Shown in pieces: positions 1 to 59,047 of a stretch of 64,000 nt of DNA (position 1 is its first letter; every line of letters starts with the position of its first letter). Source of the stretch: Nannocystales bacterium (lineage in GTDB: Bacteria > Myxococcota_A > Polyangia > Nannocystales > Nannocystaceae). Position numbers and translations under genes: made by a program. The notes below the pieces were generated by a model. It searched no databases, was not told the DNA's origin, and saw only the letters and a list, made by a program, of their open reading frames with translations. Where the stretch lies: contig JBOEGF010000016.1 in assembly GCA_050633305.1 (NCBI GenBank), positions 70,057-134,056 of the forward strand, read 5' to 3'.

Positions 1-1743
1 GCCGAGCGCTCTCTTGGAGCTGGTCGGGGCCGGTGTGCGAAGCAGGTTGAGCGTCGACGCAGCCCAGTTCGCGATGTCTGGGGTGTCGTGCTGACGCAGT
101 GCGGAGGCGATGGCCTGCTCGGCGTCGCGCGGGATGCTCAGCGACCCAGCGTGGACGCAGAAGGATCCTTGCGCATCGGTACCGAGGCTGAGGACCGCCC
201 GAACGAGCTCGTCCGCGTCGTGATTGTGCAGCACGTCCTGCAGCACCCCGAGCGTGCGTTCGTCGGTGGCGGTGGGGAGAAGTGCTGTGAGCAGACGGCG
301 GAGGTCGGCGCCCTGGCTGTTGGCGCACAGGAGCGCGGTCAGCTTGGACAGCTGCTTCTTGGTGCCGCCCGTGCCCGGCGAAGACGCGACACGGATGAGG
401 ACTTCCGCGGCGGTGGAGGAGTCGAGCGAGTCGATGACTCGGTCGAGCAGCGTCGGTGGTGCGTCCTCCTTGGCGTTGTGCTTGGCCGCGGATGAAAGCA
501 GGAGCCAATGAGGAGCGGCGGCCGCGATGAACCCGACGGCGGCACCGGGATCCAGGGCGCGCATACCCGAGATGAACCACTGGGGGCCTCCGTCCGCATC
601 GTCGGGAAGCTCGGCGAGCATGGTCCATGCGCCCGGTGTTGCGACGGCCGCCGCGAGCAGTGCTTCGTCACCCGCGATGTCCCTCAGGGTTGCAACGCCC
701 CGCCCCGGGATGAAGCTGGCCAGCAGCGCTGCGGTTGTGAGGTCGAAGGACTCTGCTGAGCCGACCAAGGGGCTTGCGAGCAACGTCTCGATCAGCGCCG
801 GCTTGACGCGGAGGAGCCGGGCTCGGTGTGTGCGGAGGCCGAGCACGGCCCCCTTGCGCGCCTCGAGGGGCAGGGCCGAGCTGCGAAGAAGGCTGGGGTG
901 GCATGCCACCGCGAGCTGAAGCGTTTCGGGGAGGTGTTCGTCACGCTGCCCGTGAAGCAACAACGAGAAGGCTGCCCGAGATCGGAGGGAGCCGCCCTTG
1001 GCGAGGACGGCTTCGGCGAGACTCCGGATGAGCGCCGAGCGGGACTGGTCGCACGCCCAATAGACCCGGCACCACAAGTCGAGCACGTCCCGCCCTTCGT
1101 GGGCGAGTGGTATGCCCCCTTCGAAGGTTGCGAGGGAAGTCCCGACGAAGTCTGCTGTGCGGCGAACACTGTGGCTTAGGAGGCTGCGCAGGTCGCTGAC
1201 CGGCGCGTTGGCCAGCGCGTCTCCGGCTTCGATGGCGTCCACATGCCCGCGCAGAAGCATGTCAAACACCAACCCGCTAGGTTTCTTGGGCCACGGAGCT
1301 TCCCGGGCCAACCCTCGAAGTTCGGGGTCTGCTCGCAGGTATGTCGCCAGCGACTGCATCGCCCGGGGGGGTTCTGTCTCGAGTGCGAGGCGCCGCACGT
1401 CCTCCCGGGGGTGGAACACGGCATGCGCCCATCGCTTCGGAGCGGTCCCGCAGCTCGCCCGCAGTGCGCGCACGGCCATGCTCCGTACGTGGGCCTCGGG
1501 GTCATCGAGTGCGGCTGCGATGCGCTCGAAACCACCATGTCCCTTGGTGCCACCCAACAGTGAAACGGCCGCACCGCGGAGAAGTCCCGAGGGGTGACGA
1601 AGCAGCGCGTCGACGAAACCTAAGAACGGAGCCCGGTGGTGGAATGCGAGTTCGCACAGCGTGTGAAGCATCGCGGCGAGGCCTTCGAGGTCCTCGTCGT
1701 CGTCGATGTTCGTCAATCGCTCCCAGAGCTCGAGATCGTTCAT
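1..1743 (-). CDS. Large HEAT/ARM-repeat protein, partial (C-terminus runs off the left edge); absent from the ORF track
   Basis: Manual translation from ATG at 1743 is open for 581 codons to position 1: MNDLELWERLTNIDDDEDLEGLAAMLHTLCELAF...LLRHPSGLLRGAAVSLLG...AAALDDPEAHVRSMAVRAL...RWAHAVFHPREDVRRLAL. It has HEAT-like LxDPxxxVRxxAxxAL repeats and Leu/Ala-rich helical composition. The frame stays open upstream to about 2016, so the start is not certain. Confidence 0.8.
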   Translation of the reverse strand, partial: MNDLELWERLTNIDDDEDLEGLAAMLHTLCELAFHHRAPFLGFVDALLRHPSGLLRGAAVSLLGGTKGHGGFERIAAALDDPEAHVRSMAVRALRASCGTAPKRWAHAVFHPREDVRRLALETEPPRAMQSLATYLRADPELRGLAREAPWPKKPSGLVFDMLLRGHVDAIEAGDALANAPVSDLRSLLSHSVRRTADFVGTSLATFEGGIPLAHEGRDVLDLWCRVYWACDQSRSALIRSLAEAVLAKGGSLRSRAAFSLLLHGQRDEHLPETLQLAVACHPSLLRSSALPLEARKGAVLGLRTHRARLLRVKPALIETLLASPLVGSAESFDLTTAALLASFIPGRGVATLRDIAGDEALLAAAVATPGAWTMLAELPDDADGGPQWFISGMRALDPGAAVGFIAAAAPHWLLLSSAAKHNAKEDAPPTLLDRVIDSLDSSTAAEVLIRVASSPGTGGTKKQLSKLTALLCANSQGADLRRLLTALLPTATDERTLGVLQDVLHNHDADELVRAVLSLGTDAQGSFCVHAGSLSIPRDAEQAIASALRQHDTPDIANWAASTLNLLRTPAPTSSKRALG

Positions 1744-2531
1744 ACGTGCGGGCCATCGGACGATACCAACCAACGCCGAAACCGACCGCGTCTGATTGAC
1801 GGGTCGGGTGGCGTGGAGCAGCACGCTCCTCGACGCACAGGCTGCTGCCGAGGTGCTCTCGAGCTCGAGACGATCGCTGAAAATGGTGAACGCAGCACGA
1901 TGCCGCTGCGAACACACGTAGAGCTGTCGCCAAGAGTTCGGGAACTCCAGGACCGGTTTGGGTCTGGACGCTGCCCACTCGGCTGCCGCAACTCCCGTTA
2001 CAAACGGGCGCGCGCCTCAAAGGCGAAGTCCATGGTCGATGGCATGGTGGGTTGATTGGCCCAAAGACCCCGCACTCACGATGGTCTTGGCGGAATCAGG
2101 CCTCGCGTCCGACTGCTCCCATCCGAGAAGTCGCCATGGCAGACGCGCCCCTGCACGTCACCGCCAAGGCGGGCGCACAAACATCAGAATCCCAAATCGA
2201 GCCCGAGACCGGGCGTGTTCAGCGATTGAGGACGAGCACGACCGAAGCCGAGATCATCATCAACCCAAACGCGTCCGCTCTCGCGGCAAGCACGGCGCAG
2301 TCGTTACAAAGCATGAAATCTGCCTTGCTGGACTGGACCGCCTGTTCCACGAGAATCATCCGAATCTGATTCGCGCGGAGCTGGTGTGGTTGTTGGTGTG
2401 TTCTCTAGGCTCACAGTGCACCTCCAGGTGCCGGTCGAGTCTGAATGATTGAGGAACGACTTCGGATGAAGCCGCGCCGGACCGTAGCACCACGATCCGT
2501 ACCGTCAAGGACGCAACGACAGCACGCGGAT
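1744..2531. ncRNA. Candidate large structured non-coding RNA (~790 nt) upstream of the HEAT-repeat gene
   Basis: Longest intergenic gap in the window with no convincing CDS. More than 12 short hairpins, internal repeated motifs (GATTGAGGA..CGA..GAAGCCG at 2224 and 2447; CGTTACAAA at 1996 and 2302), and long-range complementarity (2048-2056 with 2259-2267; 1763-1777 with 2383-2399). Confidence 0.5.
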
Positions 2532-5451: not shown

Positions 5452-6243
5452 TCAACTCCACCAGGCCCACAACAGCGCAACCGCGGCGAGCATCGCCAGC
5501 AGTAATGCGACCTTCTTGGTGTCGACGGGCGTCTTCCCCGTCACCCGTCCGGTCTGGCCGTTGATGACGAAACGCCAGGGCTTGTCCGCGAACCGGATGC
5601 AGCCGACGTAGACCGGAAGCATGACGGCGGCGGTATCGACATCGCGCAGCAGGACGGACGCGCGACAATCTCGCAGCCGCTTGTCGCGGATGAGCTCCTC
5701 TCGGACAGCCTGCCGAAACTGGGCGCGTGCCTCGATCGACGCGGTTTGAGCCGAGGACCCGGCGACCTCGTAGGAGGCTTTGGACGTTTCGCGGTCCCAC
5801 GCGATCGGGTGATCGGCGGGGAAGGGGGCCAGCGCGCCGAGCTCTGTCTGGGTGAGTCCGAGGCTGGCCGGAACCCACGCCTCGCGCTGTCGCTCACTTG
5901 TGCCGCTTTCGGGTCGCTTACCACTGCGGGTGTTCGCTGCGACGAGGCCCGTCCAGGTGGCCTGCACGTCGGCTCGGACTCGCCAGGCCGGAACCCACAG
6001 CTTGCGCACTTCGATGTCCTGGCTGCGAAATGCGGACGGTGTCCAGAACGAAGCCTTGGCCCACGCCCGGAACAGACCGCGCGCATCGGTATCGGACACG
6101 GAGAACGGCAGCGCGACCGTAGGCTGTTCGACCTCGTGGAGTTCGGTCGCGGTCAGCGAGATATCCCCACAGAAGACGCACTTCACGGCCTCGACCTGGG
6201 CATCGAAGACCACGATGCCGCCGCAGTTTTCGCACTCGGTCAC
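5452..6243 (-). CDS. Zinc-ribbon protein with C-terminal membrane anchor (paralog 1)
   Basis: GTG at 6243 overlaps the upstream stop; CENCG...CVFCG; FVINGQTGRVTGKTP followed by a TM helix. Confidence 0.8.
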   Translation of the reverse strand: MTECENCGGIVVFDAQVEAVKCVFCGDISLTATELHEVEQPTVALPFSVSDTDARGLFRAWAKASFWTPSAFRSQDIEVRKLWVPAWRVRADVQATWTGLVAANTRSGKRPESGTSERQREAWVPASLGLTQTELGALAPFPADHPIAWDRETSKASYEVAGSSAQTASIEARAQFRQAVREELIRDKRLRDCRASVLLRDVDTAAVMLPVYVGCIRFADKPWRFVINGQTGRVTGKTPVDTKKVALLLAMLAAVALLWAWWS

Positions 6244-7196
6244 ATCCACGGCAGGTCTCCCCTCGTCCACAGGACCAGCAGCGTGGTCAACACCGCGAGG
6301 ATGGCCACGACGGCCGCGACTTTCGCCTTCGAGGTGGGAATGGAGCCGACCACGGTTCCGGTCTGTCCGTTGATCGCGATCTGCACGGGTGCGTTGCCCA
6401 GCCGAACGGTCGCCAACCACACGGGCATCAGCACGAGTCGGACCCGGTGGATCTCGACATCGAACTCCGCTGTTCGGATTCGCTGGGCATCCCCTGTGAG
6501 GTGCTTGCGGCGAAGATGTGCGCGGCCGATTTCGCAGAGGGTGTGGTGAGCCTCCGCGTCGATGTCACGGCGGGCCTTGGAGGGAAGCTCGGCGCTCCAC
6601 CCCAGCATCACGCGGGCGTCGAAGTCCGCGGCGCGCCCGAGGTCGAAGGGCGCGAGTTTGCGGGCGCGCTCGGTACTGAGCCCTGCCGACGCGCACACGA
6701 GGTGATCCTCCAGCTGCATCCCCATGCTCCCCCGTAGATCGAACCACTCGGTCTCGCGGACCGTCCTCGTCTGGGTGGTGGGACCTTCGGGTTCGATATG
6801 GATCGTCTCCCCGGCTTTGTCGGGCTTGGGCTTGGCTGGCTTGACCTCGACGGTCTCCTTTCTGTGCCAGTGCACACCCACACGCGCGCTGTAGTCCGCA
6901 CAGATCGTCGCGTCGTACGCGTAGAACGGAACGAGCACGCCCTGCACGGCATCGGTCTGCAGCCGTCCTCGCTTGGCCAGCGTGCGTACGGCCTGCGGTG
7001 TCCACCACCGGTCGCCGATGTGGGTCCGCAGACGCTCGAGCGCCGCGCGCTTGCTCAGTCGGAAGGGAGCGATTGCGTCGATCGCGGACGCGGCACGCTG
7101 CGCGTCGACCAAGGGCGCGGTGCAGTAGGCACACCTCGTGGCGATGTGTCCGACATCGGCCTCGACAACGGCACCGCAAGCCGTACACGCATACAT
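6240..7196 (-). CDS. Zinc-ribbon protein with C-terminal membrane anchor (paralog 2)
   Basis: CTACG...CAYC; PF...WWTP; INGQTGTVVGSIP followed by a TM helix; clearly homologous to the downstream gene. Start approximate. Confidence 0.8.
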   Translation of the reverse strand: MYACTACGAVVEADVGHIATRCAYCTAPLVDAQRAASAIDAIAPFRLSKRAALERLRTHIGDRWWTPQAVRTLAKRGRLQTDAVQGVLVPFYAYDATICADYSARVGVHWHRKETVEVKPAKPKPDKAGETIHIEPEGPTTQTRTVRETEWFDLRGSMGMQLEDHLVCASAGLSTERARKLAPFDLGRAADFDARVMLGWSAELPSKARRDIDAEAHHTLCEIGRAHLRRKHLTGDAQRIRTAEFDVEIHRVRLVLMPVWLATVRLGNAPVQIAINGQTGTVVGSIPTSKAKVAAVVAILAVLTTLLVLWTRGDLPWM

Positions 7197-7433
7197 GTGG
7201 CTCCCGCTCAACGCCGACAGTCTACCGACGGTGTCAGCGTTCGGTCGGTGAAAGATCGTCAGAGAACCGTCGTGATCCACTGACGGTTTGTCGTGTCCCA
7301 CATTTCGCCCACTCGGCAACGGGCCGGATCTTCGTTGCCGAGCGATTGGCCGAAGTTGGTACGCCACCTGCAACCCTTCCTGACCGAACGGGTGAGCGTC
7401 ACTTCAGACGGCCACACCGACAGGAGGACAGGA

Positions 7434-7598
7434 ATGAACGATCAAATCCGCTACTACCGCTTCGTTGCTCAGTTTGTCGATGCGGTGCTCTCCGAGCCTC
7501 TCGTCCGCACCTTCCGCGAAGACCGCCGCAAGCCGATCCCCATGCCCACCCGGGCACCGCGCGTGCTTCACGAGACCCCGCTGCCGCGCGCAGCCTGA
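7434..7598 (+). CDS. Small hypothetical protein (54 aa)
   Basis: Strong SD (AGGAGG..AGGA) directly before ATG; MNDQIRYYRFVAQFVDAVLSEPLVRTFREDRRKPIPMPTRAPRVLHETPLPRAA. Confidence 0.5.
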   Translation: MNDQIRYYRFVAQFVDAVLSEPLVRTFREDRRKPIPMPTRAPRVLHETPLPRAA

Positions 7599-7695
7599 GT
7601 TTTCCCCCGGAGTCGCGGCGACGAGTGAAACAAGACTCCCAACACAGGACACCAATCCCTGGCTCGTCTCCTCCCCCTCGGCGAGCCTGTCCCCC

Positions 7696-7953
7696 ATGCC
7701 TGTGCTCGTTCCTCTTGTCGTCGCGATTCCCTTTATCTTCGCCGGTTGGGTTGTTCACCGCGCCCTCGAGCACCGGGCTCGAATGCGGCAGTTGAGCGTC
7801 CCCGCATTTCCAGCTTCGGTACCCGCGCTTCCGGCAGCCGACCGCGCTGCTCTCGAGCAGCGGATCGCAAATCTCGAGGCCATCGTCTGCAGCGATGAGT
7901 TCGCGTTTCAGCGGACGCTCGGCGAGCGCCGAGACGAGCGCGGCGCGGCCTGA
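7696..7953 (+). CDS. Small membrane protein, PspB-like architecture
   Basis: N-terminal TM helix followed by the coiled coil LEQRIANLEAIV, reminiscent of the PspB C-terminus. Confidence 0.6.
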   Translation: MPVLVPLVVAIPFIFAGWVVHRALEHRARMRQLSVPAFPASVPALPAADRAALEQRIANLEAIVCSDEFAFQRTLGERRDERGAA

Positions 7954-7967
7954 GCTCTGCTTCAAGG

Positions 7968-9836
7968 CTATCGATCGGCCAGCAGCTTGAGTTGGTCGAT
8001 GAAGCCTTGCGACACGTTGAGGGAGCCGGAGACGACGCCGGGCGCGGGGTGACGAAACACGAAGCTCACGTCGTCGATACCCACCCCGAGCGGTGAGGGA
8101 ATCTCGGCAGCGTCGCTTGGAGGCAAGATCGGGCGAAGCCATTCGACCGCGCCCGCGATGTCGAACGCGTACAGCCCCACAAGCCCAGAGCGGCCCGAGT
8201 CGAGGCCCTTCCAACCCTTGCGATCTTTGACCGTCTTGCCGTCGCGCGTCGCCTTGATCGCTGCCTGCATGTACGAGTCGCCTTCGGTTGGAGAGGCGAC
8301 GAAGATGACCCGGTCATCGATCTCGGCGCGGTCGATCTGCATCGTGAGGTCGGGCCACAGCTTCAGGAGGCGCTCAGCGTCCTCATCGGCCGAAGCCTCC
8401 TTGAGGACCTCCGCTGTCGGGCTGATCGACCAACGGTCGATCTCGATGCCCTCGATCGTCGTTGCGCCGGCTTCGAACTTCCATTGGACTCCGTCTTGCG
8501 CCTTCTTGGGTAGGACGGCCTCCGTGGTGAAGCGCTCACTCCATGCTTTCCACAGGTCGCGGCCGGGCGCGGCCTTGCCAACCTCGAGCACCAGTGCGCC
8601 CAGCGTCCCGGGCTCGTAGAGCATTCCCATGGCGACGTCGCGCGAGTAGAGTTCGGACTCTTCTTTGATGAAGGCCTCGAGCTCGGTCTCGAGCTTGCTC
8701 GCATCGACGTCGAACTCCTTGGCGATCTCGGTGGAGGCAAGCTCGATCGCTTTTGTCCAGTTGCCGTTCTCGAGCAACCCAGACCCCATCTGCATGCCGG
8801 CAAAGACGAAAGCCGACATCGGAAGCGCGGAGACGAAGTCCTCGTTCATTCGACCGGCATAGGTGGTGTCGAACTCCTTCTGCAGATCCGAGCCCGGCTT
8901 GGCGTGGGTGGCCATCGACAAGTGTGCACCGGCGGGTGTCATCCCCAAGCCGATGGAGAACTGGCCCATGTCGGCGACGCGCTTCTTGAGGTCTGCGGGC
9001 GAGGTCGCCCCGGGGGAGCTGTCGAGTTTGCCGAGGCCTGCCATGAGGTCCTCGACTTCCTTGCCGTAACGCGTCATGGCGTCGGACGGGTAGATGACAA
9101 CTTCGAAGTCGGCGATCGCCTTGTCGGCACGGCCGACGATGTTCGCTTCGAGGTAGCCCTTCGCGCTCGCGAGCACGTCCGGGTGGTTCGAGAGCGCAAC
9201 CTCGTCTCCGAGTGCGTCGATGTAGACCTTCTGGCCTTCGACCTCATAGGCGGCGACGTGCCCCTTGGCATCGTCGAGCTTGCTCGTCTCGCCCAGGTCT
9301 TTGACCAAGCCTTCGGCCCCGCCCGTGTAGCCGATGACACACGCGACAGGTGTGTCGTCGACGGTGCTGTTGACGAGAGCACAACCGAAGGGCTTGGTGA
9401 GGTCCACGTTGATCGCGACGGTCGACCGCTCGCCGAGCTGCATCGCGGCGAGGGACTTGAGCCCTTCGAGGTCGACCATGCTTTCGACGGAGGGCGGGGA
9501 CGCCTGCGCCTTGATCTCCTTCACGGAGGCGACCGCGTTGCCCATCATGAAGTGTCCGAGGATTCCTTCGTGCTCGAGCAAGGGTGCGGCGGCAGCGGCG
9601 GCGGTTGCAGCTTGGATCGTGGCTGCAGTCGTCACACCGAGGCCGGTCACGGGCTTGTCACCTTCCGGTGTTGGGGCGGCTTCGGGCTTGTCACCTTCCG
9701 CTTGCTTGCCGTCATCACCCGCGGCTTCGGCCGCTTTGGTGTCGCCTTCGGCGGGTGCGGGATCTTCTTTCTTGCAGCCACCCGGAACGACGAGGGGGAG
9801 GGCACACAGGGCGATCAGTCGAGGGCGGCAGAGCAT
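7968..9836 (-). CDS. Large hypothetical lipoprotein (622 aa)
   Basis: Signal peptide with lipobox VPGGC-KKED, Ala/Pro/Glu linker, long globular region, typical codon bias. Confidence 0.8.
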   Translation of the reverse strand: MLCRPRLIALCALPLVVPGGCKKEDPAPAEGDTKAAEAAGDDGKQAEGDKPEAAPTPEGDKPVTGLGVTTAATIQAATAAAAAAPLLEHEGILGHFMMGNAVASVKEIKAQASPPSVESMVDLEGLKSLAAMQLGERSTVAINVDLTKPFGCALVNSTVDDTPVACVIGYTGGAEGLVKDLGETSKLDDAKGHVAAYEVEGQKVYIDALGDEVALSNHPDVLASAKGYLEANIVGRADKAIADFEVVIYPSDAMTRYGKEVEDLMAGLGKLDSSPGATSPADLKKRVADMGQFSIGLGMTPAGAHLSMATHAKPGSDLQKEFDTTYAGRMNEDFVSALPMSAFVFAGMQMGSGLLENGNWTKAIELASTEIAKEFDVDASKLETELEAFIKEESELYSRDVAMGMLYEPGTLGALVLEVGKAAPGRDLWKAWSERFTTEAVLPKKAQDGVQWKFEAGATTIEGIEIDRWSISPTAEVLKEASADEDAERLLKLWPDLTMQIDRAEIDDRVIFVASPTEGDSYMQAAIKATRDGKTVKDRKGWKGLDSGRSGLVGLYAFDIAGAVEWLRPILPPSDAAEIPSPLGVGIDDVSFVFRHPAPGVVSGSLNVSQGFIDQLKLLADR

Positions 9837-35929: not shown

Positions 35930-36062
35930 GCGTCCAATTTGAGCCAGGTTCGTGTCAGCGCCAAGAGGCACAAGTCACGAGCTGGCGGGGGCGCCGAGCG
36001 AGTCCATGGCAACGAAGGGCCAGTTGCCCTGCACGGCATCCGAATGCTAGGCGTAGCGAGTC

Positions 36063-37031
36063 TTGCTCACCTTGAGTGTCGCTTTGTGGTCGGCGCTGTC
36101 GCCCCCGGTCGAGGTCGGCTGGTCCGGCTCTTGCGATGCCCCTGACGCCGTCGAGCTCGCTGTCGTCGCCGAGCTCGAGGGAACACAAGACGAGGCGCGC
36201 TGGGTCCCGGTCGATGTCCAGGTCGGGGTGCATGAGGCTGAGGGCGTGTTTACGGCAGATGTCCTTCTTGTGACGGAGTCTGGCGAAACCGCTCGCACCC
36301 TGCAGGCCGGGACGTGCGAGGAACTTCATCAGGCGCTCGGTCTGATGATCGCGATTCACGTCGACCCCTTCGCGGGCGAACCCGAACCTGAACCTGAACC
36401 TGAACCCGAACCCGAACCCGAACCCGAACCCATTTCGGTCGTGCCGGGGCCCGTCGATTCGGCGCCTCCCGATTCGATACCGCCCCCGGAGCCTCCCCCC
36501 GCTGAACGCCCCGTGTTCGGGCCCGAGCGCGGTGCCGGCCTGCTCCGTGTTGGCGTGGGTCTGACCATGGGTCTTCTCCCGCGTGCGGCCCCCACATTCG
36601 AACTCGCCGGCGGCTGGTCTCGCGGCCACCTTCGACTGGCTGGGCACTTCGACTATCTCCCGCCGCAACTGGAGGAGGTCTCGGATGGAAGCATCTCACT
36701 ACAGGCTTGGTCCGCGAGCGGGCAGGCGTGCGGCGTGTTGTTCGCCCGGGCCCTGAGCGTGCCGCTGTGTGGGGAAGTTGGAGCGGGCGCGGTTCACGGG
36801 AGTGCGGCCGGGTTCGTCGAGACGGACACCGATGCCAGGCTTCAAGCGCTCGCAACCGCGTCGGTGGGCGTGGACTGGGCGATCGCGCCCGGGTTTTCGT
36901 TCTGGGCTCGGGTCGAGGGAGGAGCGACGTTGGCCCGGCCAAGCTTCGAAATTCAGGGTCTGGGGACGGTCTTTGCTGCCGAGGCGTGGCGAGCCGGGGC
37001 GACGATCGGCGTGGGATACGATTTTTTGTGA
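36063..37031 (+). CDS. Outer-membrane beta-barrel-like protein with (EP)9 linker
   Basis: Periplasmic N-domain, EP repeat, alternating beta strands ending GVGYDFL; first gene of an ECF module. Confidence 0.7.
   Translation: MLTLSVALWSALSPPVEVGWSGSCDAPDAVELAVVAELEGTQDEARWVPVDVQVGVHEAEGVFTADVLLVTESGETARTLQAGTCEELHQALGLMIAIHVDPFAGEPEPEPEPEPEPEPEPEPISVVPGPVDSAPPDSIPPPEPPPAERPVFGPERGAGLLRVGVGLTMGLLPRAAPTFELAGGWSRGHLRLAGHFDYLPPQLEEVSDGSISLQAWSASGQACGVLFARALSVPLCGEVGAGAVHGSAAGFVETDTDARLQALATASVGVDWAIAPGFSFWARVEGGATLARPSFEIQGLGTVFAAEAWRAGATIGVGYDFL
36378..36431 (+). repeat. Coding hexanucleotide tandem repeat (GAACCY)x9
   Basis: Encodes EPEPEPEPEPEPEPEPEP. Confidence 0.9.
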
Positions 37032-37064
37032 CGGGTTGCCCACGTCCGCTGCAACTCGTCCCGC

Positions 37065-56707: not shown

Positions 56708-56727
56708 CGGCCTGAGCAGGGAAACGC

Positions 56728-57450
56728 TCAGTCGTAAGGATCTTCTTTTGTCATTCTTGTCATGGCGTTCTCAAGAGTGATCTCCGGAACAGCGGCGGGC
56801 TCCGCCCAGACGCTGAGGGTGCTACCACCCCTGGAGACTGACGGGAACGCGCCAATCGATTGGAGGTGAGCCTCACTGCCAACAAATTCCATCAAAGCCG
56901 CATTGCTCTCCCAGACCGTGAACGTGCGCAGTGAACCGCAGGTCATCGAAGCGCCCAGTTGGAGCGCGACCATCCCCGGGTTGCTGTAAAGAGCCATCGA
57001 GTTCGCAGCGTTTAGTTGGCCGAGGAGTTGCGAGTCTGTGTCTGGACGCAGAGCGAGGTAGGTGACGCTGACGACAAACTCGGTTTGTCCGTCATCGATG
57101 AGATTACCGTCTCCGTCTGCACCGGGGCCGTACCAACGGGTAGGGCCAGGCACACCGAGTTCGTCGATCACAACGTAGTCATCTTCGAGCAAGTCGCGGC
57201 GACATCCGGCGAAGGGGTCTGAGCCGGTTGAACTCTCGTCATCGGGCCCAGTGCTGCCCTCGGCACTGGAACTGGTCGAGCCCGAAGACGAAGGTGTTCC
57301 TGTACTAGGGACATCGGTTGTAGAGCCACCACTAGGTCCAGTGGTGGAAGCATCAGCACCGGTGTCATCGGAGGCGGCGTCACCGTCGTCGCCACAGGCG
57401 GGAGCAAGCGCGAGGGTGATTAGGTAGGCGTAGCGAGCGTAGGTTTTCAT
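56728..57450 (-). CDS. Lipoprotein with C-terminal DUF3291/ABM-like dimeric alpha-beta barrel domain
   Basis: Lipobox APAC-GDD; S/T linker; PG.V...RTFTVWES..ALMEFV.SEAH. Confidence 0.7.
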   Translation of the reverse strand: MKTYARYAYLITLALAPACGDDGDAASDDTGADASTTGPSGGSTTDVPSTGTPSSSGSTSSSAEGSTGPDDESSTGSDPFAGCRRDLLEDDYVVIDELGVPGPTRWYGPGADGDGNLIDDGQTEFVVSVTYLALRPDTDSQLLGQLNAANSMALYSNPGMVALQLGASMTCGSLRTFTVWESNAALMEFVGSEAHLQSIGAFPSVSRGGSTLSVWAEPAAVPEITLENAMTRMTKEDPYD

Positions 57451-57489
57451 GAGTTGTGGTCCCAAACGGAAGATGAAGGAAGGAGGAGT

Positions 57490-57882
57490 TCAAGCGTGCG
57501 AGGGCACGCTCGCGAAAAAGAGCCGCTCGAAGTCACGGTCGAGCCGCCGGGAATGAAAGTTTGCTTGGCTGCCGTGTACGCTCAAGGTGATGGTCTCGCC
57601 TTGTTCGGCGCCCAGCGGCCCCATCACGACAGCCCAGTCCCCGTTGGTCGCGGGGGCACCAACCCGGATGTACGTGTAGGGCCCCACAGTTCTTCGTTCG
57701 TGGACGACGCCGCAAAGGGTCGCGACGTCGGTCTCCTCGAACGAGGGCATGGTCTCGGTTTTCGCCGGCGGGGTCGCTGCAGGCGGAAGGGTCACAGCGG
57801 CGCTCGCTTCGAGCGCCGGGGCTTCGGTGGTCGAGCAGCCCCAAGCAAAGGCAGCACACAACAGCAGTTCTCGACGGAGCAC
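57490..57882 (-). CDS. Small OB-fold lipoprotein (NrfJ-like)
   Basis: Lipobox AWGC; G.V.E....GPYTYIRV...WAV...NFHSRRLDRDFERLFF. Confidence 0.65.
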   Translation of the reverse strand: MLRRELLLCAAFAWGCSTTEAPALEASAAVTLPPAATPPAKTETMPSFEETDVATLCGVVHERRTVGPYTYIRVGAPATNGDWAVVMGPLGAEQGETITLSVHGSQANFHSRRLDRDFERLFFASVPSHA

Positions 57883-58072
57883 GGGGCCAGCGTGAGCGGA
57901 GAACGCGTCATGCGGGAGGCACACCGATGGAAGGGGGCCTTGCAGGAATGGTCCCAGCGTTCCGGAACGAGCCGGAGCATGCTCTGGGAGGACGGGGGAC
58001 GGGTCCAAGGCGCGATTGCAACACCCCCTTGCAGCCGCGGGGCTTCCCCAAGAAGTCCGGTACTGTAGTGCC

Positions 58073-59047
58073 GTGCTGAACTGGGACGACCTCAAGGTGT
58101 TCCTTGCCGCCTTCCGAGAGGGGAGCATCGGCAGGGCGGCAGGGCGGCTTGGCGTCAGTGGGTCGACGGTGAGTCGTCGGCTGACCGCGCTCGAAGCCGC
58201 GTTGGGTCAGAGCCTCTTCGTCCGCTCGCCCGACGGCCTCAAGCCGACCGCGGCGGGCACACGAGTTTGGGATGACGCGCAGGAAGCTGAGCGTCACGTG
58301 ACTCGGATGCAGTTCGGCGTGCAGGAGGTCGACGAACTTCGCGGGAGTGTTCGGGTCTCTGCTTCTTCCGTGCTTCTTCACACCGTCATCCTTCCGAATT
58401 GGAGCGAGTTTTCGCGGACGTACCCCGAGATCACGGTCGAGTTCGTGGAGAGCACAGAGCTTGCAGACCTCGAGCGGTGGGAGGCGGACATCGCGATTCG
58501 CGTTGTCCGGCCGCAGTCGGGCGACAACCTCGTCATCACTGCTTTGCGGGAGTCGAAGATGTGGGTCTTCGCCGCGCGAGCGCTGCTCGTGGAGCGCGGC
58601 GTCGACCCTGACGATCATGCGGCTCTGTGTGGGGTTGGCTCGTCGCTCGGGGATTGGCCGTGGGTCGACTGGACGACCGAACAACGTCATCTTCCCGGGG
58701 CCGCGCTGCGTGAGCACTTGGTCCCGAACGCTCGGGTCGTGATGCGTCTGTCCAACCTCGAGACGATCCGTTTGGCGGTGGCGGCGGGTATGGGACTTGG
58801 GGTTCTACCGTCGTTCTTTGGGCGGGTTTGTCCGACCATCGTCAGGCTGCCGGAGCCGAATTTCGACAAGAACTCGAGCTTGTACTTGGTGGGTCACGCT
58901 GCCGTACGGAACACAGCCCGGGTCAAGGCCGTTTGGGAACACCTTGTGACCTTCCTTCGGGGCACGGACGAAGAGCAGCTCGAGGAGGGCAGGACCTTGC
59001 TGACGAGGGCCTACGGGGTCATCTTCGACGAAACAAGCGGCGCTTGA
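58073..59047 (+). CDS. LysR-family transcriptional regulator
   Basis: NWDDLKVF...AAGRLGVSGSTVSRRLTALE...LFVR; EADIAIR. Confidence 0.92.
   Translation: MLNWDDLKVFLAAFREGSIGRAAGRLGVSGSTVSRRLTALEAALGQSLFVRSPDGLKPTAAGTRVWDDAQEAERHVTRMQFGVQEVDELRGSVRVSASSVLLHTVILPNWSEFSRTYPEITVEFVESTELADLERWEADIAIRVVRPQSGDNLVITALRESKMWVFAARALLVERGVDPDDHAALCGVGSSLGDWPWVDWTTEQRHLPGAALREHLVPNARVVMRLSNLETIRLAVAAGMGLGVLPSFFGRVCPTIVRLPEPNFDKNSSLYLVGHAAVRNTARVKAVWEHLVTFLRGTDEEQLEEGRTLLTRAYGVIFDETSGA

Follow-up and report, generated by a model that had tools for sequence, protein, structure and literature searches.

The window analysed here is a 64,000-nt stretch of contig C16 from a Nannocystales genome. Its left end is occupied, on the minus strand, by the 5′ third of a gene (1..1743) encoding a 1694-aa protein with a HEAT solenoid, an HEXXH segment, and a vWA domain; this gene ends outside the window at C16:66715. 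A gene for a 377-aa MoxR protein, likewise outside the window (C16:66691-65561), starts 23 nt after its stop codon. The initial annotation had expected a locus that continued beyond the left edge, was linked to an AAA-ATPase, and might include vWA genes. Both genes do extend in that direction, MoxR is an AAA ATPase, and the vWA domain sits in the HEAT protein itself. The region upstream of the HEAT gene (1744-2531) had been described as the longest gene-free gap of the window; with a crude ORF filter it ranked third, behind gaps of 1599 nt (56708-58306) and 1122 nt (35943-37064), which may hide missed genes. Elsewhere in the window, positions 5452-7373 hold two tandem, similar genes for zinc-ribbon membrane proteins without Pfam matches.

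Judging from orthologous sequences, the gap 1744-2531 is non-coding, because the frame of the 2052-2369 ORF was open without stops in merely one of nine orthologues and the orthologous proteins start at the ATG at 1743, with a nearly invariant first methionine. Two coding alternatives were rejected: a longer HEAT N-terminus together with the 2052-2369 ORF, whose frame is unconserved, and stop read-through into the HEAT gene, as the stop-to-stop frame lengths differ among orthologues. The gap was 74–83% identical in all six same-genus genomes (6/6), and its centre matched in four further genera. Searches of its own genome with BLASTN/nhmmer and with a covariance model found no second copy of the element. 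Among assembled contigs of relatives, one from an RNA-seq run that may contain DNA spanned 1962-2314 and part of the HEAT gene, and contigs from two runs of uncertain type, which may also contain DNA, ended near 1939. Because these runs were found by searching with this very stretch and may hold DNA, we do not take their coverage as evidence of expression.

All 13 inverted repeats listed by the initial annotation are present at the positions it gave (13/13). The whole 788-nt gap folded better than its dinucleotide shuffles, with z scores of −4.2 on the plus strand and −3.0 on the minus strand (20 shuffles per strand). When 200-nt windows were compared with 120 control windows (mean −0.16, SD 1.29, 5th percentile −2.07), only the flanks stood out (z = −2.8 at 1744-1943 and −2.9 at 2244-2443), and the windows over the core had an unexceptional folding energy (z = −0.04 and +0.28). 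The A-rich linkers that had been noted between the hairpins exist on the plus strand as read; the RNA is on the minus strand, as described below, and they are hence U-rich in it.

Comparative analysis revealed a conserved core of approximately 117 nt on the minus strand (2035..2151). We aligned 42 sequences obtained by iterated profile searches upstream of the protein gene; the top 14 column pairs by unbiased mutual information were mostly standard base pairs in 79–100% of the sequences and defined the helices. The core consists of three nested helices, namely P1 (2147-2142/2104-2109), P2 (2133-2125/2110-2118), and P3 with a 3-nt bulge (2101-2090/2059-2073), together with a kissing loop between the P2 loop (2123-2119) and the P3 loop (2080-2084) and a long-range pseudoknot (2140-2134/2042-2047); a short helix, P0 (2150-2149/2049-2050), also belongs to it. 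Across 41 pairs in seven helices, 94.4% of the cells could pair and 35 of the 41 pairs varied on both sides. None of 500 shuffles equalled this pairing, and slid registers gave 38–51%, although the shuffle figures are not probabilities, since related sequences are not independent. The pairing is thus long-range and pseudoknotted, instead of the independent hairpins of the initial annotation. Within the proposed helices, G-U cells outnumbered A-C cells by 133 to 17, which fixes the strand: by this measure the conserved element is on the minus strand, and a plus-strand RNA was rejected.

The helices were then examined in 42 held-out cores, whose alignment used a profile of sequence alone. Pairing was 98–99% in P1, P2, P3, and the pseudoknot and 73% in P0, where the search pattern that supplied most of these cores had constrained P1, P2, and the 5′ strands, and had left P3 and the 3′ strands free. 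The kissing loop was 82% paired in the same set, a value reached by 4 of 500 shuffles; its central pair was broken in 15 of 42 sequences. The expectation of a conserved, covarying non-coding RNA thus held, with seven helices confirmed in held-out sequences. The contrary explanation, that the gap is plain intergenic sequence, or a protein gene missed by annotation, and is conserved through relatedness alone, could draw on the unexceptional folding energy of the core and on a mini-ORF whose frame is kept within the genus. It is opposed by the covariation of the seven helices, by a core that is 99% identical within the genus compared with 52–77% across much of the flanks, and by frameshifts in the candidate ORF 2052-2369; the covariation and its confirmation in held-out sequences have already largely refuted it, and we consider it extremely improbable. 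On the comparative evidence, the element almost certainly represents a real and new class of structured RNA that is tied in evolution to the HEAT-HEXXH-vWA protein and the MoxR ATPase.

Around the core, we delimited a predicted RNA unit of about 630 nt on the minus strand (1843..2474); the corresponding unit is about 430 nt in Kofleriaceae. Both ends are predictions, the 5′ end (~2474) from conserved promoter spacing and the 3′ end (~1843) from a closing stem and from the point at which homology stops in a copy with an inserted gene (L006). In ten genus-level sequences, the unit presents in order −35 and −10 elements, a GGAGG hairpin, a GTG mini-ORF, the core, and peripheral hairpins. A candidate sigma70-like promoter heads it, in which the TTGAC of the −35-like hexamer (2503..2508) is invariant in 10/10 sequences, the 16-nt spacer diverges, and a −10-like hexamer preceded by TG (2481..2486) is suggested by the conservation pattern. 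A strict consensus promoter scan did not call this −35/−10 pair; a loose pattern hit 18 of 94 where 6.8 were expected, and most of these hits came from the genus of the window.

The 5′ hairpin (2418..2431; 92% paired in the ten genus-level sequences) contains a GGAGG Shine-Dalgarno sequence (2425-2421), and a mini-ORF of 36 codons with a GTG start follows (2304..2414), whose frame does not shift within the genus. Of 35 Kofleriaceae-type copies, 31 had an SD-like word, and in 28 of these 31, against 7.5 expected, it preceded a start codon at +4 to +7; the SD pattern had been widened after inspection of the data. The mini-ORFs of these copies span 1–28 codons in all three frames, and a conserved leader peptide was rejected given lengths of 1–36 codons overall.

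The closing stem, formed by 2284..2292 and 1843..1850 (paired as 1850-1843), was merely 74% paired in the ten sequences of the window's genus, a moderate value. In 35 Kofleriaceae-type copies, which had been selected for a visible closing stem, its equivalent was 97% paired with a U-rich tail after it; four further helices covaried in these copies, each with 0/500 shuffles as high. An outer helix (2191..2196 with 1962-1957) was 87% paired with six two-sided changes in ten sequences, and helix Pb, which joins 2182..2186 to the 3′ tail of the conserved core (2041-2037), was 100% paired in the genus and 97% paired in the Kofleriaceae-type set (five two-sided cells, 0/500 shuffles). The genus-level peripheral hairpins between 1891 and 2025 on the minus strand, namely 2013-2025, 1994-2008 (88% paired), and 1891-1910 (97% paired, seven two-sided changes), were 88–97% paired in ten sequences and could not be aligned outside the genus. 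Among the other hairpins originally listed, 2161-2172 was 100% paired in the same ten sequences; 2201-2214 (58%), the palindrome at 1857-1870 (70%), and 1934-1947 (73%) did not hold. On the minus strand, the protein operon has its 5′ UTR at 1744..1842, with hairpins at 1782-1807 and 1815-1829; the copy that carries an insertion has lost this interval or diverged in it.

Next, we focused on the proteins. The predicted structure of residues 1-1119 of the HEAT protein is an all-helical solenoid (pLDDT 90) with many conserved arginines; a search with this 1119-aa model returned generic HEAT/ARM matches with Z up to 9.9, and Ro60 was not among the matches listed. Residues 1120-1694 carry an HEXXH motif, a segment that the fold searches barely covered, and a vWA domain with DxSxS. 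Both motifs are invariant, as are acidic residues downstream of HEXXH. The MIDAS is intact (DxSxS, T, D), with D413, S415, S417, and D504 invariant in 54 C-terminal sequences. The best structural match of the vWA module was the MIDAS of Rea1/MDN1 (Z 20.5, rmsd 2.8, 201 aligned residues), NorD matched with Z 17.3 (rmsd 7.6, 222 aligned), and CobT was the sole PDB profile match. Relatives come from records titled Nannocystaceae, Kofleriaceae, Polyangiaceae, and Sandaracinaceae, and the protein lengths are near 1650–1750 aa throughout. A quick tree of the 54 C-terminal sequences grouped largely by host family; the system of a record titled Pirellulaceae (L092), which lies whole in a region of lower GC, was nested among Polyangiaceae, suggesting either transfer or mis-binning.

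The MoxR protein matched AAA_5 (E 8.6e-12), and its match to bpMoxR was weak and below the cut-off. Its N-terminal ~85 residues offer a lead to a further domain. In a targeted pairwise test with a diverse profile, HHalign aligned them over 58 columns with profiles of TRAM, for which 22 local matches had been used, at a probability of 80%; the score was 29.2, compared with 8.2 ± 1.6 and a maximum of 14.3 for 100 column shuffles. The comparison with S1 gave 20% over 19 columns, and that with CSD 1%. A narrower profile found no Pfam TRAM or PDB match and at most weak DUF5818 matches, and ESM Atlas gave no usable match. TRAM domains bind RNA. A wider MoxR subfamily (P0127-P0233, G355:C184, and G468:C4; 24–51% identity), which includes one member titled Phycisphaerales, shares the TRAM-like N-terminus. 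Two more distant homologues with this N-terminal domain, in genomes G355 and G468, had no big protein in their vicinity and no RNA that could be clearly recognised there.

The RNA and the proteins co-occurred closely. Among 72 genomes of the order, 22 contained the C-terminal part of the protein and 22 the RNA, in one copy each; 21 contained both and 49 neither, where most of the positive genomes had helped to build the model. Of the two mismatches, G089 has the RNA beside the N-terminal part of the protein at a contig break, and in G091 (63% complete) the protein gene runs off the contig and the RNA was not found. Starting from the protein, after removal of four duplicate loci, the core was found upstream in 42 of the 43 loci with more than 300 nt of upstream sequence, L096 being the one miss. 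Starting from the RNA, a pattern scan of metagenomes gave 60 loci, 42 of which had at least 900 nt downstream; in 38 of these 42 the protein gene follows in the same sense, one breaks off too soon, and three show unrelated genes. The MoxR gene lay within 400 nt of the protein gene in 40 and within 10 kb in 47 of the 52 loci with room, and was alone among the neighbours in 65 loci in being widely conserved. Samples of the phylum contained the RNA in 2/151 genomes, the protein in 3/151, and MoxR in 14/401; seven of ten MoxR genomes searched gave a strong RNA match, some perhaps overlapping the training set.

The three RNA-first exceptions (L114, L135, and L138) have complete cores followed by unrelated genes (by eye, kinase, oxidoreductase, caspase-like). 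Upstream of the cores in L114 and L135 is a gene pair that resembles, again by eye, a methyltransferase and a nuclease, in one case with an apparent intein. The most divergent full system found was L163 (G129:C108), in which the protein is merely 34% identical and is accompanied by a promoter and a weak RNA core, correctly placed and with its kissing loop intact. It is flanked by genes resembling, by eye, a HipA-like kinase and HIRAN, and the same genome has a second partial locus on C120.

The position of the RNA relative to the gene was informative in 82 of 95 distinct cores, the remaining 13 being on short contigs. In 69 of the 82 copies, the RNA immediately precedes the gene and shares its orientation (62 identified by profile and seven missed by it). 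In eight distinct copies it is separated from the gene by a gap or by inserted genes, several on the opposite strand. One core is inverted (L068), as is a second case (G384), and in G227 the RNA is about 26 kb from the protein gene; three further cores lack a partner within the sequence available. The inserted genes, identified by eye, include the following: L036 (G006) has a gene for an apparent 436-aa Asp/Asn-tRNA synthetase (7558-8868) within an insert of 2.8 kb in all; L042, L124, and L140 carry an opposite-strand gene for a 190-aa DedA-like membrane protein; and in L126 and L084 a gene for a small glycine-rich peptide with a bacteriocin-like leader lies on the opposite strand just 3′ of the RNA, before the HEAT gene.

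To interpret this arrangement, we considered whether the RNA could be a cis-regulatory leader of the HEAT-vWA/MoxR operon, such as an attenuator, a riboswitch, or an autoregulatory site. Whether the closing stem and the U-tract form and transcription stops would then be set by a ribosome at the mini-ORF, by a ligand, or by the protein. The sense-adjacent position of 69 of the 82 informative copies is expected of such a leader; a promoter, an SD sequence, and a mini-ORF lie upstream, the mini-ORF overlapping the 5′ strand of the stem in 12 of 28 Kofleriaceae-type copies; a U-rich tail follows the closing stem; and unpaired bases that are invariant might line a pocket. The same 5′ strand of the stem could alternatively form a local hairpin, which was 92% paired, yet showed no two-sided change. 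However, intact copies occur inverted (L068 and G384), 26 kb away (G227), and behind opposite-strand genes (the five loci named above), and whereas a riboswitch should turn up in front of different kinds of gene, 38 of 42 RNA-first matches precede this single one. We regard a purely cis-acting leader as fairly unlikely. A trans-acting subunit is favoured over a riboswitch because the structure survives inversion, displacement, and opposite-strand insertions, yet is hardly ever kept without both proteins.

Taken together with this trans-type behaviour, the large arginine-rich solenoid, the possible RNA-binding domain on the ATPase, and the MIDAS handle led us to favour a remodelling particle. 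With slightly better than even confidence, we propose that the RNA is the RNA subunit of a MoxR-vWA remodelling ribonucleoprotein particle, a three-part system of Myxococcota. Its parts would be a large structured RNA gene, a giant adaptor (the 1100-aa HEAT solenoid, the HEXXH zinc-peptidase-like segment, and the vWA/MIDAS domain), and, as ATPase, a MoxR AAA+ protein whose N-terminus is TRAM-like. The RNA structure, its strand, the domain folds, and the tight co-occurrence are computational findings; the mechanism that we propose is as follows. The RNA would be transcribed first from a shared promoter and released as a free RNA at the closing stem, with read-through supplying both proteins. 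It would act in trans, with the solenoid, the TRAM-like domains, or both binding its pseudoknotted core. In NorQ-NorD, CobS-CobT, and Rea1, an AAA+ ring pulls through a vWA/MIDAS domain; by analogy, a MoxR hexamer would pull via vWA/MIDAS and remodel or release the cargo of the particle. A conserved Shine-Dalgarno sequence and start codon without a conserved peptide suggest that the RNA also loads a ribosome, which would be the lead candidate for the client or trigger, or else a control on the amount of read-through into the protein genes; this is the weakest step of the proposal.

Several observations stand against the particle. The predominance of sense-adjacent copies is as expected of a cis-regulator, and the three RNAs followed by unrelated genes lack a partner gene in the 1.6–3 kb at hand. 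The TRAM match came from a targeted pairwise test with moderate probability, the narrower profile having given nothing, and the MoxR homologues of G355 and G468 are without the big protein or a clear RNA nearby. The frequent breaks in the central pair of the kissing loop, the 82% pairing of that helix in the held-out set, and the 74% pairing of the closing stem in the window's genus also weigh against it.

A bolder form of the remodelling particle would make the RNA a decoy mRNA, whose SD sequence and start codon load a ribosome against the locked pseudoknot domain, while the HEAT-HEXXH-MIDAS adaptor and the TRAM-bearing MoxR ring remodel, split, or cleave the captured particle. We put this split-midasin ribonucleoprotein forward tentatively. 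If true, bacteria would have a counterpart to the action of Rea1 on ribosomal particles, and MoxR proteins their first RNA-guided machine.

A different possibility, modelled on type III toxin-antitoxin and retron systems, is that the RNA guards an effector. The RNA would keep the HEXXH peptidase-like effector inactive, or would sense infection by its own degradation or mistranslation, and MoxR would free the effector. The invariant HEXXH motif and downstream acidic residues are compatible with such a conflict system, as are the patchy presence (22/72 genomes in the order, 14/401 in the phylum sample) and the one Pirellulaceae-labelled copy nested among Polyangiaceae. MoxR-vWA conflict systems have also been described in multicellular bacteria (PMC7159879, Kaur et al. 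2020). Against it, PADLOC gave no match for the big protein and matched 4 of 83 neighbouring ORFs, all generic enzymes (two kinases, an apparent helicase, and an apparent phospholipase D-type protein); one pattern tried on viral contigs gave 0 matches; the quick tree groups by host family; and the proteins, with their near-uniform lengths, have no variable effector domain. The defence role proposed in the initial annotation stays hypothetical, and we consider an RNA-guarded effector unlikely.

We also considered a catalytic RNA, self-cleaving or of another kind, that would process the transcript of the operon. HDV-like double pseudoknots have a strand order similar to that of the core (P1, pseudoknot, inner hairpin, P1′, hairpin, pseudoknot′) and, in the joiner that precedes their last helix, a catalytic C that is invariant. 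The compact, doubly pseudoknotted core, in which 23 positions are at least 95% conserved among 84 sequences, and its tolerance of inversion and displacement would suit a ribozyme. However, no Rfam ribozyme matched at E values up to 10, the joiner before the 3′ strand of the pseudoknot has no conserved C (at most 50/84), the loop pairs with a hairpin loop and not with a junction, and the link to one gene is near-exclusive. A catalytic role appears very unlikely.

Classes of large, intricately folded bacterial RNAs are few, and each has opened new biology. The RNA described here has named partners in a MoxR-vWA pair, and few clients of that family are known. Plesiocystis pacifica (L052) is a carrier available in culture, and the core structure is resolved enough for compensatory mutants. 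Were it a cis-regulator, it would still constitute a new riboswitch-like class with two tertiary contacts.

Finally, we compared the system with known RNA families and protein machines. Rfam 15, which we take to include MISL, OLE, Y RNA, HDV-like, and retron models, gave no match at the gathering score in the window and four chance matches (E 4.5–7.6) in 1650-2650. MISL RNAs consist mostly of independent stems; the kissing loop, pseudoknot, and long-range helices that covary here, like the Rfam result, speak against the MISL identity raised by the initial annotation. In retrons, the reverse transcriptase gene adjoins the RNA. The retron identity and reverse transcriptase link that it also raised were not supported, given the lack of an Rfam match, the location of the genome's three RVT_1 matches on C36, C9, and C24, with none on C16, and the absence of such genes among the conserved neighbours of the 65 loci. 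The RNA thus has size class alone in common with MISL and retron msr-msd. A divergent RNase P RNA or tmRNA was rejected, as the genome has canonical copies of both elsewhere.

OLE RNA with OapA offers a parallel in a structured RNA of roughly 600 nt whose partner protein was first suggested by genomic co-location (PMC12265935). It differs in giving no sequence or model match, in its phylum, in its membrane-protein partner, and in lacking an ATPase. The MoxR-vWA ternary conflict systems likewise combine MoxR and vWA genes in multicellular bacteria (PMC7159879), and the portion of that text available mentions no non-coding RNA; unlike them, the present system has no third variable protein component or variable effector. 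No description of the RNA or of the system was found in the literature, although the supplementary motif tables of large screens could list the motif. This includes PMC5737381, whose main text, by term search, contains no MISL, HEAT, MoxR, or Myxococc- and whose supplements could list it.

Among motor proteins, NorQ-NorD, CobS-CobT, and CbbQ-CbbO similarly place an AAA_5-type ATPase beside a vWA protein, whereas the system here adds an 1100-aa HEAT solenoid to the adaptor and a TRAM-like domain to the ATPase. Rea1/midasin shares the MIDAS that best matches the vWA module in structure, but has ring and MIDAS in one chain. A literature search found no MoxR-vWA pair with an RNA subunit, and we know of no such adaptor pair.

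Ro60 (Rsr) with its Y RNA is the closest parallel in gene arrangement: phage Ro60, according to PMC12135203, combines HEAT repeats and a vWA/MIDAS in one protein with Y-like RNAs encoded upstream, as the present protein has a structured RNA gene just upstream. In both, the RNA ends pair, and Kofleriaceae-type copies end in a U-rich tail. In contrast, Ro60 is a protein of about 500 aa with a TROVE ring, whereas the protein here has 1694 aa and an HEXXH segment, and the RNA is 400–630 nt, pseudoknotted, and without a Y RNA match. TROVE (PF05731) had no match in the protein or in the 92%-complete genome, in a search whose controls were positive in 2/14. To our knowledge, Ro60 loci do not include MoxR as a partner. 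In sum, the putative RNA-protein system falls outside Ro60 and every Rfam family, and resembles Ro60-Y RNA most closely in layout and NorQ-NorD or Rea1 in its type of motor.
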